Part shown: piece after piece, positions 1 through 58,035 of the stretch | Layout of the letters: each line of letters starts with the position of its first letter | How positions within the stretch are numbered: the first letter of the stretch is position 1 | From: a virus | Taxonomy: Duplodnaviria > Caudoviricetes | DNA length: 59,649 bases | IMG/VR virus record: IMGVR_UViG_3300037089_000087 | Coordinates: 1-59,649 of that record | Reading direction: 5' to 3' (one strand) | The notes under the pieces: generated by a model | What the model was told of the DNA's origin: nothing | What the model saw: the letters and a program-made list of their open reading frames with translations, nothing else | The model's database searches: none | Made by a program: the position numbers and the translations under genes

Positions 1-390
1 AAGCATGCTGTGGTACTGAATAAGCAACGCCTCATAAACGTCAGAAAACACTAGGGTGCAGACGGGTCGCGCTATCTCCCACATCTTTTGATAATGTCCA
101 GGCTTGAGCTGTTCGAGCCATGCCTTGAAACGCTTTTCATCTCTGTGGCAATCTGCATGACAGATTTCACACAAAGGCAAAAGATTCTCGATTAATGCAC
201 AAGTGCCAGAGTATGAACGATGAACGATGTGATGAGCCGTCAATGCACAGATACGTCCGCAAAAACTACACCGTCCCCTAGCAATGAGACATGCAATCTT
301 ACCAGCAACGTCTATCGCCTTCTCTCGATATGTTCGGTGTTCTGAATCGTCTGGGTATTCTTGTTTAGGATATGGCTTTGTATAGTTCAT
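1..390 (-). CDS. NinG/Rap-like HNH zinc-finger nuclease (3' partial, runs off window)
   Basis: Hand translation from ATG 390: ...RGRCSFCGRICALTAHHIVHRSY...ENLLPLCEICHADCH (CxxC..HH..N..LCxxCH); open to window edge; GAGGAGG upstream. Confidence 0.7.
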   Translation of the reverse strand, partial: MNYTKPYPKQEYPDDSEHRTYREKAIDVAGKIACLIARGRCSFCGRICALTAHHIVHRSYSGTCALIENLLPLCEICHADCHRDEKRFKAWLEQLKPGHYQKMWEIARPVCTLVFSDVYEALLIQYHSML

Positions 391-512
391 GGAACCATTG
401 CCTCCTCTATCGTCCAGCCAGCTTTAATTCTTTTTCTAAATCTACCATCTGGAATGTGAAATATATTGGCCCATTCTGCTATGGTATGACTTACTCCATT
501 ATATTCTATTTT
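387..512 (-). pseudogene. C-terminal remnant of an HNH-type homing endonuclease
   Basis: Translates KIEYNGVSHTIAEWANIFHIPDGRFRKRIKAGWTIEEAMVP*, similar to the C-terminus of the 24277..24957 protein (IEHHGQRKTLAQWSEITGIP..RLRYGWSVERAF); begins exactly at the IS right end. Confidence 0.65.
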
Positions 513-760
513 TTGATACTCCCCACGCCTAAAGGCGGGGGATTCTAGGCGGCTACGCCGCCCTTAACTGTTTCAACCAGCGTTGCTGGCTTTCGCCAGA
601 CTGACACACTGTCCGCAGTCGTTTAACGTCTCCATGTATCCCAAGGCGACGAGAATTCTAATACCTTCCGCTTTCAGATTGAGAGATGCGTTGCCATCCC
701 TGCGGTGGTGTGTTCCGCAGGATGGACAAATCCAGTCTCTATCCGAAAGGGTAATACACG
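513..760 (-). mobile_element. tnpB: IS200/IS605 remnant: TnpB C-terminal fragment plus right-end hairpin/omegaRNA region
   Basis: LSDRDWICPSCGTHHRRDGNASLNL (Zn ribbon and RuvC-III D-x-N-A-S); end sequence GAATCCCCCGCCTTTAGGCGTGGGGAGTA-TCAA typical of IS605 right ends; left junction approximate. Confidence 0.8.
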
Positions 761-1248
761 GCTGGCTCGTGGATATGCTGAGGCTTTTCAATTCCTGCCA
801 GCATTCCGAAATAGTCGTAGGCATCCTCGATGTCCTCGAAGATGACACCGCTCATTTCGAGAATGAACGCATGGTTGTGGATGTTTTCTTTCGGCAGGAC
901 GGTGATAATGAGCTTGTCTTTGGCATACGCCCTCGACATCTCGGAAACAGTTCCTACAGATACCCTGTCTTTGCAACGAGTAAAATCTGGGAACAGAATA
1001 TCGCATTGGTCAACACGCCAGAAGTCCACGGCGCGGATGGCCTTGTTGGTTGTCACAGGGTTATGGTCATAGCCAGTCGCACGAAGCTCCAGTTCGTTCC
1101 GCAGGTGTTCTTGAGCAACCCATGGATGAAGAACATTGTAGCCCATTTTCGTGAGCCGTTCGGAGCGTTTTTCAAAACACTCTTTTATGGCATCGTAGGA
1201 ATGACCAGAAACTCCACCTACGCAGTACACCGTATATGGTTTTAGCAT
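739..1248 (-). CDS. Nucleoside 2-deoxyribosyltransferase/RCL-like nucleotide hydrolase
   Basis: VYCVGGVSG ... DFWRVDQCDIL ... SVGTVSEMSRAYAKDKLII motif pattern. Confidence 0.75.
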   Translation of the reverse strand: MLKPYTVYCVGGVSGHSYDAIKECFEKRSERLTKMGYNVLHPWVAQEHLRNELELRATGYDHNPVTTNKAIRAVDFWRVDQCDILFPDFTRCKDRVSVGTVSEMSRAYAKDKLIITVLPKENIHNHAFILEMSGVIFEDIEDAYDYFGMLAGIEKPQHIHEPAVYYPFG

Positions 1249-1261
1249 GTCACATTTCCTT

Positions 1262-1804
1262 TCAATGGAAAGTTATAACGCCCTTGTCCACTAATATTGC
1301 GAACATGGAGTTCTTCAGCCTGTCAATCTCTCCGCTCTTGGCAGACAGGGTAAAATCTGGAACGATGAGGTCTTGATATGTTTCTGATGGATGAGAGCTT
1401 CCGGCCAGCTCATTCGTGTATCCTTCCCGAATGACTTTGACGGTCACGCCATATGGATATGATTTTATCCACCTAGCTTCGTTTGGGAAACGTACATCAT
1501 CGATAACGAACTTGGTAAACCTGTAACGCATGCGTTGGTCGTAAGCTGGTTGTAATGCCTTTACCCAGTAGTCAGGGTCAACCTGATTTCTAAAGAGGTC
1601 GGTACCAACCTTCTGAAGGATTTCCCTGCTATGAGCCGTTTTCTCGATGTAGCATTCATCATATGTTACCAGACCTGCCTTGATGCACATTTTCTTGAGC
1701 CGTTCGGCAAATGAAATCTTTACGAATCCGTGCTGGTCTATGAGATACTGACCGATAGTTGTTTTGCCTGAATATGCCTTGCCGATAATTCCAACGATAA
1801 TCAT
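1262..1804 (-). CDS. Deoxynucleoside monophosphate kinase
   Basis: P-loop GKAYSGKTT, SFAERLK, REILQKVGTD, VIDDVRFPNE, HPSE. Confidence 0.9.
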   Translation of the reverse strand: MIIVGIIGKAYSGKTTIGQYLIDQHGFVKISFAERLKKMCIKAGLVTYDECYIEKTAHSREILQKVGTDLFRNQVDPDYWVKALQPAYDQRMRYRFTKFVIDDVRFPNEARWIKSYPYGVTVKVIREGYTNELAGSSHPSETYQDLIVPDFTLSAKSGEIDRLKNSMFAILVDKGVITFH

Positions 1805-1819
1805 TTTGGAATCCCCTTT

Positions 1820-56063: not shown

Positions 56064-56293
56064 AACCGCCCCGTTCGTGAGAATTTTGCCATATCTTGTG
56101 GATGTAGGCTACTTTTCTTAGTCGATGAACCTGCAACCTCTTTCGAGGCTGATTGGCTGCTGATTGTCCATTGTATCATCTCAATTCTTTTTAGCATTCG
56201 CATTTGTTGTTGCCAACTGTGCTGTAGCGTATTGAGCTTTGGGAGTTTCCAGCAATTAAAGGCGTTTAAAGAGAGCAAAATCACTTGTGATTA

Positions 56294-56302
56294 ACCCTCG
56301 TA
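56294..56302 (-). CDS. Major capsid protein, 9-nt micro-exon 2 (TACGAGGGT = Tyr-Glu-Gly)
   Basis: Restores NSD-YEG-KIKQKGDTV, matching the N(T/S)DYEGEI..GDTV capsid motif. Confidence 0.88.
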
Positions 56303-56561
56303 CAGGGTTTTGTTATCGCTAAGGCTCTTTATCCTTGGCTTCTTACGGTTTCTTTTCCCGTAAGCTCAGACTATATCATCTCACATATTTGTGAGCCGGA
56401 CGCTCGTGTTCGGATTATTGGTTGGATGTCCTCACCGATTAGTCGTTGAACCCGCTCAGGTACTTCTTGAATTATCCTTCCCTGAGATTGGCTGCTGATA
56501 GGCATTTCAGCTTCCCAGCAATTCATCCGGTATTTATACTCGGACTACGATTTTAGGTCAA
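56303..56561 (-). mobile_element. Group I intron 1 (259 nt, ORF-less)
   Basis: P1 ACTCGGAT/GTCCGAGT with U-G at the splice site; P10 TCGTA/TACGA; P AATTGCTGGGAA, Q TATCAGCAG, R GTTCAACGACTA, S GATATAGTC; terminal G at 56303. Confidence 0.92.
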
Positions 56562-56822
56562 ATCCGAGTTACTACAAAACGGAGCAGCGGACGCATCATA
56601 AAATTTCTCAACGACCTTATCGGCATATAGGAACGGAATTTCTCCGGAGCCTGTATCCGTGGTCAGGTCAGGTGAACCTGGGGCTGCTGGTACGGCACCC
56701 TTCTGGTTGCTCAGAATGGCGATGACCGGAAGCATCCAGCCAGCCAAAAGACATGCTGAAAGCATGACCCACAGGCCGATGAAACCCTTAATTCTTGCGA
56801 AGAAATCGAAAATACTTTTCAT
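56562..56822 (-). CDS. Major capsid protein, exon 1 (with hydrophobic leader)
   Basis: AGGAG RBS; IPFLYADKVVEKFYDAS..CSNSD is a typical capsid N-terminus. Confidence 0.85.
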
Positions 56823-56826
56823 TGTT

Positions 56827-58035
56827 TTACTCCTGCGAAGCCACTATCCTCCCTTCCATTTTTGCAGTCCTAAACTCCTCGCTCCAGTAATCCCTTTCAT
56901 CCGTGATTTTCTTTGCTTCTTCTGGAGTGTGGTGGATAGTTCTGTAATCACCACGGGTTACTTTGCGCTTGAAGTCTTCGTACTGTTGTTCGGTATAGAT
57001 GGGCTTCTTATTAGATTTTAAATCACTGCTTCCCCCCTTGGGGTTCGGCATGAGTTGACTTGTTGGCGTTGATGGTTTTGAGACAGGTGGTTGGTCTTTC
57101 CAATCAAGGAATGCCGTATACACCTCTGCCATCGTTACCGCGTTGAATGAATCATCAGCTTCCCGTGCCAGTTCGTGAATGGGTTTTTGGCTGTTCTTGT
57201 CAAATAACGACAGGAATTCTTTAAATTGCTTATCCTTTACAATGGATTCACGAACTTCCCAGCCACCGATTAACCTATCTAGGGTTTCCAAATAGGTGCG
57301 TTTTACCGGAGACATTCGTTCGACAGGCTCTTCTGTGGTTTCTTTTGAGGGCTTTTCGGCAGGTGCCTTAACCACTGGTAATTCTTGAGGTTTTGGCACT
57401 CCAGCGAGGATGACATTTTTAAGTGCAATGAACGAATCATTCTCAATACCTAAATCTTTGGCTACGTTCTTTTCATCCTCGGTAAGCTCTTTTGATACGG
57501 CCTGAACGGTTTTTTTCTTTAATTCCTCATTCTCTGATGTGAGCCGTTCATGCTCTGCTTTTGCCTTGTCTTGCTCCGTTTGTAAATCGGCGTTCTCTTT
57601 CACCAAACGAGCATTTTCTTTCATTAAATGAGGCACTTCGGCGTTGTATTTACCCTGAAGTATTTTAAGTGCCGCGCTCATACGCGTCAACGCATCATCA
57701 GATGTCTCACCTTCTTTTTTCCCTACTACTTTAGGAGCAGGAGGTGCTGTTGGCACGATGCCTTCTTTTGGCTTTTCTTCTGGTGCCGGAGAGGGCGTTG
57801 GTGTAATTGCTGGTGCTGGCGGTGGAGTCGGTGTGACTGGCTCCGGAGGTGCTGGTGATTCTATTGGTTGAGGAGCTGGAGTTTCTGGGGCGGGAGCCAC
57901 AGGAGCCACTGGCGCGGGAGCGACAGGCGGTGTTCCTTCTGGTGGTATTCCTTTTTCCTTGTTTTCTCTTGCCTCCCTCTTGTCTTTCAGTTGACGTGGT
58001 AACGGTGATGCTGGTGTGCGGATTTCTCCTACCAT
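56827..58035 (-). CDS. Capsid scaffolding protein
   Basis: Pro-rich N-terminus, coiled coil, LQGKYNAEVP motif, C-terminal AKMEGRI; directly upstream of the capsid gene; GAAAGGA RBS at ATG 58035. Confidence 0.8.
   Translation of the reverse strand: MVGEIRTPASPLPRQLKDKREARENKEKGIPPEGTPPVAPAPVAPVAPAPETPAPQPIESPAPPEPVTPTPPPAPAITPTPSPAPEEKPKEGIVPTAPPAPKVVGKKEGETSDDALTRMSAALKILQGKYNAEVPHLMKENARLVKENADLQTEQDKAKAEHERLTSENEELKKKTVQAVSKELTEDEKNVAKDLGIENDSFIALKNVILAGVPKPQELPVVKAPAEKPSKETTEEPVERMSPVKRTYLETLDRLIGGWEVRESIVKDKQFKEFLSLFDKNSQKPIHELAREADDSFNAVTMAEVYTAFLDWKDQPPVSKPSTPTSQLMPNPKGGSSDLKSNKKPIYTEQQYEDFKRKVTRGDYRTIHHTPEEAKKITDERDYWSEEFRTAKMEGRIVASQE

Follow-up and report, generated by a model that had tools for sequence, protein, structure and literature searches.

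Genes of the peat phage and positions of the octamer

The window, a 59,649-bp virus record of an uncultivated peat phage analysed over its whole length, carries a recombination module which was recognised with PHROGs and Pfam and comprises a RecE-like exonuclease (6613–7545, + strand, phrog_412), an SbcC-like AAA ATPase (phrog_1499) with an adjoining endonuclease (phrog_2340; together 9618–11571, +), a RecT-like annealing protein (11519–12550, +) and a single-strand DNA-binding protein (SSB; 15982–16404, +). Nuclease genes are numerous overall, seven ORFs have an HNH domain, and a Sigma70 region-4 protein (2580–3032, +) is a candidate sequence-specific DNA binder. Comparison of the ORFs with Pfam and/or PHROGs revealed neither an integrase nor a repressor, in searches of limited sensitivity which likewise missed the terminase; a prophage stage is thus not evident. 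The ParB-like domain ascribed to the giant protein in the original prediction had no Pfam match, even at E-values up to 1.

The octamer ACGGCTCA/TGAGCCGT has 69 exact matches in the record, 30 on the + and 39 on the − strand, the first at 233–240 and the last at 57540–57547, which corresponds to one per 864 bp, 1157 per Mb and an excess of about 53-fold over chance. An earlier estimate of about 69 copies against 1–2 by chance was borne out, as dinucleotide shuffles gave a mean of 1.31 and a maximum of 5, and none of 100 reached 69. It is the commonest octamer of the whole record, followed by overlapping words with 34, 32 and 32 copies, and no 12-mer containing it exceeds four copies, which indicates that it is not part of a longer repeat. 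Its spacing is Poisson-like (mean 864 bp, coefficient of variation 1.00). Variants differing at one position occur 68 times, twice the expected 35; depletion of a particular variant was not seen, at expected counts of just 1–2 each and correspondingly low power. Contigs of about 20 public 'peat metagenome' runs from 16 studies contained 44–100% of the sampled words of positions 30001–40000, and the octamer-rich record is therefore not an assembly quirk.

According to the ORF calls made within this analysis, on which the site classes rest, 46 octamers are sense, 17 antisense and 6 intergenic. Sense sites encoding R-L were located on the + strand at 1880–1887 and 2069–2076 (both ORF 1848–2102), 9172–9179 (ORF 8762–9202), 12352–12359 (RecT gene), 13012–13019 (ORF 12914–13078), 15409–15416 (HNH gene 15344–16003), 17580–17587 (ORF 17266–18000), 18108–18115 (ORF 18004–18219) and 55922–55929 (HNH gene 55500–56063, which is missing from relative L002), and on the − strand at 1152–1159 (ORF 739–1248), 1696–1703 (dNMP kinase gene), 25724–25731 (ORF 25443–26723), 27926–27933, 30833–30840, 33035–33042 and 35321–35328 (all four in the giant gene) and 57540–57547. 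The peptide G-S is encoded on the + strand at 3697–3704 and 3901–3908 (both ORF 3357–4091), 4472–4479 (ORF 4117–4989) and 16328–16335 (SSB gene), and at 18209–18216 (+) the octamer spans a stop/start overlap, reading D-G-S-stop with the next ORF starting at 18216. On the − strand, G-S sites lie at 23063–23070 (GNAT/C39 gene), 28233–28240, 33582–33589 and 38283–38290 (giant gene), 42117–42124 (NHL-repeat gene), 44382–44389 (ORF 44175–45206), 47000–47007 (ORF 46499–48592), 50076–50083 (head-closure-like gene) and 50543–50550 (ORF 50354–50707). T-A-Q is encoded at 5585–5592 (+, ORF 5552–5839), 10221–10228 (+, SbcC-like ATPase gene), 21177–21184 (−, ORF 20813–21409), 41812–41819 (−, NHL-repeat gene) and, in the giant gene, at 34228–34235, 34459–34466, 35131–35138, 35155–35162, 35503–35510 and 36478–36485 (all −). 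T-A-H is found at 5717–5724 (+, ORF 5552–5839), 20258–20265 (+, gene 18404–20698), 233–240 (−, N-terminus of an HNH protein, ORF 390→1), 1632–1639 (−, dNMP kinase gene) and 24296–24303 (−, HNH gene 24277–24957).

Antisense sites opposite E-P lie at 6654–6661 (−, RecE-like exonuclease gene), 9519–9526 (−, ORF 9307–9606), 13692–13699 (−, ORF 13663–14100), 46906–46913 (+, ORF 46499–48592) and, in the giant gene on the + strand, 27296–27303, 35462–35469, 35921–35928, 36401–36408, 37001–37008 and 37082–37089. Those opposite S-R lie at 13623–13630 (−, ORF 13283–13684), 18858–18865 (−, intein-bearing gene 18404–20698), 25163–25170 (+, ORF 24941–25360), 41345–41352 (+, ORF 40529–41788) and, again in the giant gene (+), 30486–30493, 31995–32002 and 36513–36520. 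The 13 copies previously counted in 34.2–37.1 kb are correct, and the intein, noted as lacking octamers, lies in a site-free stretch of 1.4 kb, which is unremarkable at the mean spacing.

Three intergenic copies had been listed at 12579, 12671 and 25429; all are intergenic, the first lying in fact at 12569–12576 (−) and the others at 12671–12678 (−) and 25429–25436 (−). The copy at 17241–17248 (−) is intergenic by our ORF calls, or antisense in ORF 16931–17359. Among copies assigned to ribosome-binding-site spacers, that at 6386–6393 (+) is intergenic, 4 nt ahead of the start codon at 6398, whereas those at 2069 and 24296 are inside ORFs and not in spacers alone. The copy at 54593–54600 (+) lies, as described, just past the stop of the capsid gene; relatives L003 and L004 have ACGGATCA there.

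Frame and strand independence and reshaped peptides

The sense sites are distributed over all three frames (15/14/17) and the antisense sites over the two frames without in-frame TGA (10/7); with five frames used and 6 intergenic sites, the occurrence of the octamer in varied frames and in non-coding DNA was confirmed. Synonymous-codon shuffling inside genes left 3.88 ± 1.89 octamers (maximum 10 in 300 shuffles) against 64 observed, so that the enrichment was not lost against this null, and the motif is present at 62 of 112 compatible peptide positions where 2.6 were expected. Both results support the proposal of a DNA-level signal that reshapes coding sequence rather than a protein repeat or codon bias. 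The force behind the octamer acts on DNA, and the octamer looks like a DNA recognition signal.

The octamer is realised at 45 of 83 sense opportunities (54%) and at 17 of 29 antisense opportunities (59%). As these fractions are equal both ways, the 2:1 excess of sense over antisense copies stems from coding opportunity; the original prediction of copies in both orientations thus stands, while the preference it described is not the signal's own. The peptides compatible with the octamer are themselves over-represented (113 against 60 ± 8 expected in the codon-shuffle analysis): the octamer has altered protein sequences. The fill of possible positions ranges from 30 to 76% by region, with 10 of 33 filled in structural genes and 22 of 29 in the giant gene.

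Flanking nucleotides, relatives and searched genomes

Weak preferences surround the octamer, namely A at −8, R at −1, W at +1, M at +4 and A at +5 (the last in 44 of 69 sites), and together with the core they form a signal of about 21 bp. They occur on both sides of the core and were seen at sites in all frames, antisense and intergenic sites. Nucleotides 4–7 of the 3′ flank contain 1.80 A per site compared to 1.12 ± 0.11 in controls (maximum 1.46 in 2000 draws), and A at −8 is kept in 28 of 47 one-off variants.

Close relatives with a capsid protein 94–97% identical are also enriched, with 9 octamers against 0.45 expected in L002 and 4 against 0.23 in L003, on contigs limited to the structural module and unrelated DNA. 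In distant relatives, whose RecT or giant protein is about 50% identical, the octamer count falls to 2 in 57 kb and 0 in 44.5 kb. Enrichment is thus shared by close relatives and lacking at about 50% protein identity, and the positions mostly differ from those of the window; the site at 57540–57547 is the one conserved in the window, L002 and L003. The lineage keeps creating the octamer, at synonymous sites and by amino-acid replacements such as TAS/TAH, TGA/NGS, GGA/DGS and TAT/TAQ, and the relative's sequence often departs from a gained octamer at 3–5 of 8 positions. Some of the relatives that keep the octamer avoid GATC and others do not, which suggests a reader common to hosts differing in their restriction systems, as expected of a conserved repair enzyme.

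A bacterial genome rich in the octamer was not encountered: none of 802 sampled genomes was enriched and no host was identified, which counts against a Chi-like role. The maximum number of RACGGCTCAW copies was 98, like the control, in a thin sample of 401 genomes from the phylum of a Bacteroidales genome, and 67 in an equally thin sample of 401 genomes from the class of a Legionella genome. In a further thin sample, ten whole genomes accessed via their loci, enrichment was about 6-fold at most and caused by short tandem arrays. No unrelated octamer-rich virus was present among the matches listed in two scans.

Candidate readers and origins of the octamer

The best single candidate for the role of the octamer, which we put forward tentatively and at less than an even chance by analogy with phages P1 and LLS and from the A-rich 3′ flank, is that of a Chi-like signal for a helicase-nuclease. 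We infer the identity of the reader and the outcome as follows. ACGGCTCA would be the invariant core of a signal of about 21 bp with its flanks, read on the DNA itself in either orientation, and would mark 'friendly DNA' for a processive helicase-nuclease, a host enzyme of the RecBCD/AddAB type, which on meeting it would stop degrading the phage DNA ends and channel them into recombination. This phage relies on recombination, since it encodes RecE, RecT, SSB and the SbcC-like ATPase, and no DNA polymerase, primase or helicase was recognisable in it with PHROGs and Pfam. The action of the force on DNA, the enrichment maintained in close relatives and its independence of GATC avoidance likewise favour a Chi-like role. 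Known Chi sequences are G-rich and the octamer is not, which counts against the Chi-like reading.

Scale and kind of the excess match the Chi-rich phages, as Chi is the commonest octamer in both P1 (50 sites, one per 1.9 kb) and LLS (23 sites, one per 1.86 kb), according to PMC12315714. In P1 the Chi sites fall on either strand (31 forward, 19 reverse) and packaging is by headful, so that the 30:39 split observed here is no argument against a Chi-like role. Chi orientation is nevertheless given as strongly one-sided in LLS (20:3) and MD8 (32:0) in PMC12315714, and the lack of such a bias here speaks against Chi. The source further describes lambdoid phages with abundant Chi and no Rec module, and Rec-plus-inhibitor phages mostly without Chi (PMC12315714); the presence of RecE, RecT and SSB in this phage counts against the Chi-like reading as well. 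The density here is twice that of Chi in P1 or LLS, and this density and the fill of 30–76% are hard to explain if added sites give diminishing benefit. E. coli Chi is reported to be enhanced by A or G at nucleotides 4–7 of the 3′ flank (PMC5041463), which the A-rich 3′ flank of the octamer parallels. The 5′-side preferences (A at −8, R at −1) count against Chi, for which we found no report of such preferences.

A phage protein that binds, nicks or modifies specific sequence might instead read the 21-bp site, a possible but rather doubtful explanation, with any of the seven HNH-domain ORFs, the sigma region-4 protein and the many unassigned early proteins as candidates. The sites could then mark the phage's own DNA to be spared from a phage nuclease degrading host DNA, or serve for loading the RecE/RecT/SbcC-like machinery, for T5-like nicking or for DNA organisation. 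The restriction of the octamer to one clade, present at 94–97% capsid identity and not at about 50%, is the pattern which a fast-evolving phage specificity would give, and the two-sided flanks in every site class, including A at −8 in the one-off variants, resemble a duplex-binding footprint. High fill and Poisson-like spacing suit a benefit local to each site, and the many nuclease genes agree with such a reader, as does the absence of octamer-rich bacteria from the genomes searched and of unrelated octamer-rich viruses from the matches listed. However, none of the proteins could be tied to the octamer. The window and L002 carry different HNH genes and both keep the octamer, so that those HNH genes, at any rate, do not read it. 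No phage protein is known to us that has some 70 sites within coding regions; stoperators are less numerous, have an orientation and lie for the most part between genes.

It is unlikely that the octamer is a genome-wide host word accumulating by molecular drive without benefit to the phage, as HIP1-type words do, or uptake sequences (USS/DUS), which temperate phages gain during residence in naturally competent bacteria. Copies in both orientations and all frames, a density near one per kb and reshaped peptides are the pattern of uptake sequences, constrained genes are poorer (structural genes compared to the giant gene) and flanking positions weaker, and a drive acting on sites independently would explain the near-saturation. 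USS/DUS typically form inverted pairs downstream of genes, whereas the octamer sites do not. In temperate Pasteurellaceae phages USS reach densities of about 750 per Mb, and large lytic ones are USS-poor (PMC6776037), but the 1157 per Mb found here exceed this reported ceiling. Neither an integrase nor a repressor was found among the ORFs searched, though the terminase was also missed, and none of the bacteria searched was octamer-rich.

Spread by biased mismatch repair or gene conversion, without a function of its own, appears improbable. A mismatch-specific endonuclease of phage or host would convert near-cognate heteroduplexes, frequent in a RecE/RecT-recombining phage, towards ACGGCTCA, much as CCWGG owes its enrichment in E. 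coli to very-short-patch repair. Near-saturation, Poisson-like spacing, independent gains per lineage and the endonuclease genes beside a recombination module fit this explanation, and the surplus of one-off variants sharing A at −8 is like a pool of sites in transit. Yet the predicted depletion of a one-off variant was not seen, at low power with 1–2 expected each, gains at 3–5 of 8 positions exceed what single-mismatch repair supplies, and no Vsr-like gene was recognised in the phage.

Readings of the octamer as a repeat at protein level, a consequence of codon usage or an error of sequencing or assembly are refuted almost beyond doubt by the five frames and 6 intergenic sites, the codon shuffle (3.9 against 64), the low copy number of 12-mers and the presence of the sequence in independent assemblies and runs of 16 studies, even though some giant-gene sites encode similar E/P/T/A/Q-rich peptides, two of them have 7 further bases in common, and the same octamer forms an in-frame protein repeat in other viruses (G819, G822).

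Abundance and coding context of the octamer

The octamer ACGGCTCA occurs 69 times in the window, 30 times on the '+' and 39 times on the '-' strand, compared with 1.31 copies expected and a maximum of 5 in 100 shuffles. At this density of 1157 per Mb it is the most frequent octamer of the window, and the runners-up are words which overlap it. According to the ORF calls, 46 sites lie in sense orientation and are spread over all three frames (15/14/17), 17 are antisense and confined to the two frames which avoid an in-frame TGA (10/7), and six are located in the approximately 4% of the genome called non-coding. 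The use of five frames, together with the finding that no 12-mer containing the motif exceeds four copies, excludes a protein or DNA repeat family. The rejected protein repeat would look like the pattern found in two other IMG/VR viruses, G819 (10042-22616) and G822 (15876-17710), where the octamer occurs on one strand 14 and 7 times, respectively; all distances between its copies are multiples of 3, which indicates an in-frame protein repeat there.

The original prediction of a DNA-level signal had named loss of the enrichment upon codon shuffling as the outcome that would speak against it. The excess persisted: shuffling of synonymous codons within each gene left 3.88 ± 1.89 sites (maximum 10, n = 300) as compared to 64 observed. 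Peptides compatible with the motif (T-A-[QH], [NHDY]-G-S, x-R-L-[IMTNKSR], [LMV]-S-R and x-E-P-[FLSYCW]) carried the exact octamer at 62 of 112 positions, with 2.6 predicted from codon usage. The realised fraction was alike in both orientations (45 of 83 sense and 17 of 29 antisense positions). The 2:1 preference for the coding strand, previously taken as a feature of the signal, thus reflects where coding permits a site, with the forbidden TGA frame taken into account, rather than a property of the signal. Moreover, 113 compatible peptides are present in the window, whereas residue shuffles gave 60.3 ± 8.0 (maximum 89, n = 500), and about 50 motif sites therefore seem to have arisen through protein change. 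The general inference of a DNA-level signal stands on the excess over codon-shuffled genes, the use of five frames and these peptide changes. The filled share of compatible positions differs by region, being highest in the giant gene (a 4013-aa ORF; 22 of 29), intermediate in the early '+' block (21 of 36) and lowest in the structural genes (10 of 33). Spacing of the sites is Poisson-like (coefficient of variation 1.00, largest gap 4050 bp); they seem to sit wherever they can be accommodated rather than at fixed intervals.

Preferences extend beyond the core. On its 5' side, 40 of the 69 sites have A at position -8 and 57 have a purine at -1; on its 3' side, 52 have A or T at +1, 56 have C or A at +4 and 44 have A at +5. 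This flank information is significant but weak, amounting to 0.17-0.40 bits per position as compared to about 0.03 which we estimate for chance. As the same preferences recur at sites in the three sense frames, at antisense and at intergenic sites, they are not derived from coding. Nucleotides 4-7 of the 3' flank contained 1.80 A per site, while controls gave 1.12 ± 0.11. Variants of the core with one mismatch were present 68 times, a twofold excess over the 35 expected, and 28 of 47 kept the A at -8; they look like sites entering or leaving the motif state. Depletion of any single one of these variants was not visible in the window. Among 428 differences seen in four runs between 20001 and 40000, none of the 40 listed falls within a motif site, a comparison without statistical power as about 0.5 was expected.

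Distribution among relatives and other genomes

Three close relatives carry the motif as well. The 18.2-kb IMG/VR contig L002, whose capsid protein and DNA are 97% and 72-85% identical, respectively, to those of the window, contains nine sites (0.45 expected); four sites are found also in the 7.4 kb of this contig unrelated to the window. Among two metagenome contigs with a 94% identical capsid protein, L003 (7.3 kb) contains four sites (0.23 expected) and L004 (2.3 kb) one. Only the site at 57540 is common to the window, L002 and L003, and L003 has a second site in common with L004, to which it is 98% identical. Every other site in aligned DNA is private, occurring in a single lineage, the partner sequence agreeing with the motif at two to seven of eight positions. 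These private sites correspond to the replacements TAS/TAH, TGA/NGS, GGA/DGS and TAT/TAQ in otherwise conserved protein contexts, and in one case to the synonymous change GGG/GGC. Parsimony suggests that the motif was gained independently where three sequences can be aligned. The site-creating, lineage-specific replacements and the approximately 50 surplus compatible peptides are direct evidence that the motif overrides protein sequence, of which this is a clear case. The pattern of sites further indicates that the motif predates the split between window and L002 and is still turning over.

Distant relatives are poor in the motif. A complete 57-kb relative with a 51% identical RecT has two copies, and a 44.5-kb relative (estimated 99% complete), which shares the C-terminal part of the giant protein at 50% identity, has none. 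Enrichment in close but not in distant relatives assigns the motif to one clade. The phage collection yielded no DNA match to the window, no related sequence was retrieved with three protein queries from IMG/VR contigs or from this collection, and a query with the capsid protein found nothing in prokaryotic genome contigs. The best phage match of the AAA ATPase (41% identity) was Microcystis phage MaeS, with no motif copy in the 41 kb examined. In the examined parts of both motif-poor distant relatives, L245 (record G010) and L246 (record G011), the commonest octamer is GCCGCTGA, which agrees with the motif at five of eight positions and at six of eight with ACCGCTCA, the commonest one-mismatch variant of the window. 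The whole records contain 9 and 8 copies, respectively, in strongly one-sided orientation (1:8 and 7:1); a peptide effect may account for this abundance, or a polar signal of lesser strength.

The window also shows a signature of restriction avoidance. GATC is absent as compared to about 220 sites expected (433-453 counting both strands), TTCGAA is absent (25-35 expected), CGACG/CGTCG is present twice (48-79 expected), CCAGG/CCTGG 19 times (79-108 expected), and GGCC and GGACC are likewise low. GATC is absent from L002 too, whereas L003 and L004 have normal numbers (27 and 12). As the motif is found in relatives with and without GATC, it is independent of the restriction pressure that removed GATC. 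At the intergenic site 54593-54600 after the capsid gene, the window carries ACGGCTCA, while the GATC-tolerating L003 and L004 carry ACGGATCA.

We searched prokaryotes, represented by one genome per species, for two flanked motif copies within 30 nt. Genomes recurring among the at least 120 stretches listed contained short tandem arrays, at a whole-genome density of at most 1 per 8 kb. In the bacterial metagenome-assembled genomes G005, G006, G007 and G008 (loci L196, L194, L168, L240 and others), such octamer-bearing arrays have a period of 20-30 nt and lead to a whole-genome octamer excess of 1.4- to 6-fold over a control word; they are a phenomenon different from the scattered sites of the window. 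Ten whole genomes reached through loci showed no motif enrichment apart from that due to such arrays. Two even samples of 401 genomes each, drawn from the phylum of a Bacteroidales genome and the class of a Legionella genome, contained no genome above control, with at most 98 and 67 copies of the flanked 10-mer, respectively, whereas we would expect thousands of copies in a host at phage-like motif density; both samples are thin relative to such large groups, and the host may lie outside them. The sample from the Legionella class includes four genomes flagged unpublished (G457, G559, G714 and G726) and one flagged limited (G666), which are considered here by their counts alone. Two scans for motif pairs revealed no unrelated virus with scattered enrichment among the IMG/VR matches listed. 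Nine candidates of the 215 IMG/VR loci listed were chosen for counting over the whole record, and the candidates were explained by tandem arrays, in-frame protein repeats (G819 and G822) or chance. One contig picked for a motif pair, L261, has six copies within 11.8 kb, but the motif does not rank first among its octamers and the contig is no relative of the window.

Possible readers of the octamer

The finding is real and strong. Genome-wide recognition words are a known kind of element in phages; this word itself is undescribed in the literature searched, where neither form occurs as a whole word, though supplementary tables of predicted Chi motifs may bear on this. Its density exceeds the figures given for Chi in phages P1 and LLS and for uptake signal sequences (USS) in phages (PMC12315714, PMC6776037). 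Chi and uptake signals are the two phenomena known to give rise to hyper-abundant non-palindromic words within genes of phages.

As the leading reading, though at somewhat less than an even chance, the motif may be a Chi-like signal for a helicase-nuclease of the RecBCD/AddAB type, by analogy with Chi-rich phages. P1 and LLS carry 50 and 23 Chi sites (about 1 per 1.9 kb), and such phages exploit host RecBCD for recombination-dependent growth (PMC12315714). There, as for the 69 copies in the window, Chi is the top octamer of P1 and LLS (E. coli) and MD8 (Pseudomonas), with tens of copies in 20- to 50-fold excess, located inside genes and at sites which differ among relatives (PMC12315714). We counted 31 forward and 19 reverse Chi sites in P1, and the missing polarity of the motif is thus compatible with Chi. 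E. coli Chi is reported to be more effective when nucleotides 4-7 of its 3' flank are A or G (PMC5041463); the motif, A-rich at these nucleotides, shows this purine preference, though +4 favours C or A. Several differences set the motif apart from Chi or count against this reading. The motif is unrelated in sequence to GCTGGTGG or GCTGGCGC of Chi-rich phages, and its 5' flank is informative too. Its density is twice that of Chi in P1 and LLS, it shows neither polarity nor clustering at the ends whereas LLS (20:3) and MD8 (32:0) are strongly polar, and the window encodes RecE, RecT and SSB whereas Chi-rich lambdoid phages are described as lacking a Rec module (PMC12315714). Furthermore, no motif-enriched host was found among the genomes searched.

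A phage protein as the reader, for which there is no close precedent, is a rather unlikely possibility. The restriction of the motif to one clade, the two-sided footprint around the core and its absence elsewhere among the genomes searched and the IMG/VR matches listed argue for it, but none of the genes of the window could be linked to the motif. Those HNH genes which differ between window and L002 are excluded as readers by this very difference. If the reader were phage-encoded, the motif would represent a new way of marking viral self-DNA.

An uptake-like or other host word appears unlikely, even though the pattern of uptake sequences fits the motif well. In temperate phages of Pasteurellaceae, USS are described as gathering by drive to densities of about 750 per Mb at most (PMC6776037). 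They share with the motif a non-palindromic core of 8-9 bp plus weaker flanks, lower numbers in constrained or recently acquired genes and effects on peptides, and USS and DUS alike occur, as the motif does, in both orientations and all frames at about 1 per kb. The motif exceeds the ceiling stated for phage USS in the same source (PMC6776037). No sign of lysogeny was detected in the window, where Pfam and PHROGs recognised no integrase, and no motif-enriched bacterium was found among the genomes searched. To our knowledge, uptake specificity is documented in only two bacterial families.

We regard as decidedly unlikely a Chi-like system of the phage's own, in which the octamer would be read as a self mark by the phage nuclease and recombination module (RecE-like exonuclease, SbcC-like ATPase and endonuclease, RecT and SSB) and not by a host enzyme. 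Motif-free host DNA would then be broken down for nucleotides, and motif-dense phage DNA would be spared and routed into recombination-dependent replication. Such a self mark would explain why the motif is restricted to one phage clade, occupies most of the possible positions on either strand, has a duplex-like footprint and is missing from every bacterial genome searched. If the motif is of the Chi type or a self mark, it would allow the processing of DNA ends to be approached from sequence in an uncultivated host-phage pair from peat, and Chi-rich phages would be extended to one with its own recombinase. The octamer could then also reveal the host and other phages of this host, in analogy to USS profiling, which singles out phages lysogenising Pasteurellaceae. 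Whether the reader belongs to the host or to the phage, the motif is a clear example of a DNA signal prevailing over protein sequence.

Accumulation of the octamer by biased repair without function seems very improbable. Further known systems differ from the motif. HIP1 (GCGATCGC) of cyanobacteria is a palindromic octamer containing GATC which occurs far above chance in all frames and has an unknown function. It resembles the motif in being hugely iterated in all frames, but the motif is non-palindromic, and the GATC-free window has no copy of HIP1. A polar sequence of the KOPS or SRS type is excluded by the strand distribution and the equal realised fraction in sense and antisense. Stoperators of cluster A mycobacteriophages are 13-bp sites read by a phage protein, oriented with transcription and located mainly between genes. 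They are likewise asymmetric and present in tens of copies over a phage genome, whereas 63 of the 69 motif sites lie in coding sequence without orientation preference after coding opportunity; with no repressor found by Pfam or PHROGs, a stoperator-type repressor site is excluded. In T5-like and phiKMV-like phages, an enzyme of the phage recognises a short consensus in the phage genome; the resulting nicks are few and confined to one strand. The motif, known from contigs alone, resembles this in being a short consensus at many places of the genome and differs in its occurrence on both strands.

Assembly and gene content of the window

The window is an entire virus record of 59,649 bp. A '-' strand ORF runs in frame from 390 across the record ends to 58948 (130 + 234 codons), which indicates that the assembly closes on itself; its first part contains an HNH domain, and homology to L002 begins only at its second part. 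Contigs from about 20 public peat metagenome runs of 16 studies contain 44-100% of the words sampled from 30001-40000, and the sequence, which belongs to an uncultivated virus, is therefore real and recurrent.

Genes were recognised by Pfam or PHROGs, and many ORFs remained without any match. The structural module appears podovirus-like, to judge from a capsid protein, an SU10-type adaptor and a head-closure protein. Recombination genes encode a RecE-like exonuclease, RecT, SSB and an SbcC-like ATPase with adjoining endonuclease; a sigma region-4 protein is also encoded. With many ORFs matchless, no DNA polymerase, primase, helicase or terminase and no integrase, repressor, methyltransferase or RecBCD inhibitor was recognised. 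Seven ORFs contain an HNH domain, six by PHROGs and one from its translation: 1-390, 2580-3032 (HNH at the N-terminus), 15344-16003, 16401-16934, 24277-24957, 55500-56063 and 58408-58938. The last two are missing in L002, and the ORF at 24277-24957 has its homologue elsewhere in this contig (14979-15545). As at least three HNH genes differ between window and L002, they look like mobile homing genes.

The 764-aa protein encoded at 18404-20698 matches phrog_284 ('exonuclease') and is split by a LAGLIDADG intein; as no terminase was recognised genome-wide, the protein may represent the large terminase, or else a different nuclease. For the 4013-aa giant ORF at 26733-38774 (-), Pfam gave no domain even with E allowed up to 1, and the ParB-like domain earlier ascribed to its product was accordingly not found. 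The C-terminal 1000 aa of the giant protein are 50% identical to a protein of the 44.5-kb IMG/VR virus L246. A dNMP kinase gene (phrog_139) is located at 1262-1804 (-); in phages, such genes often go with modified nucleotides.
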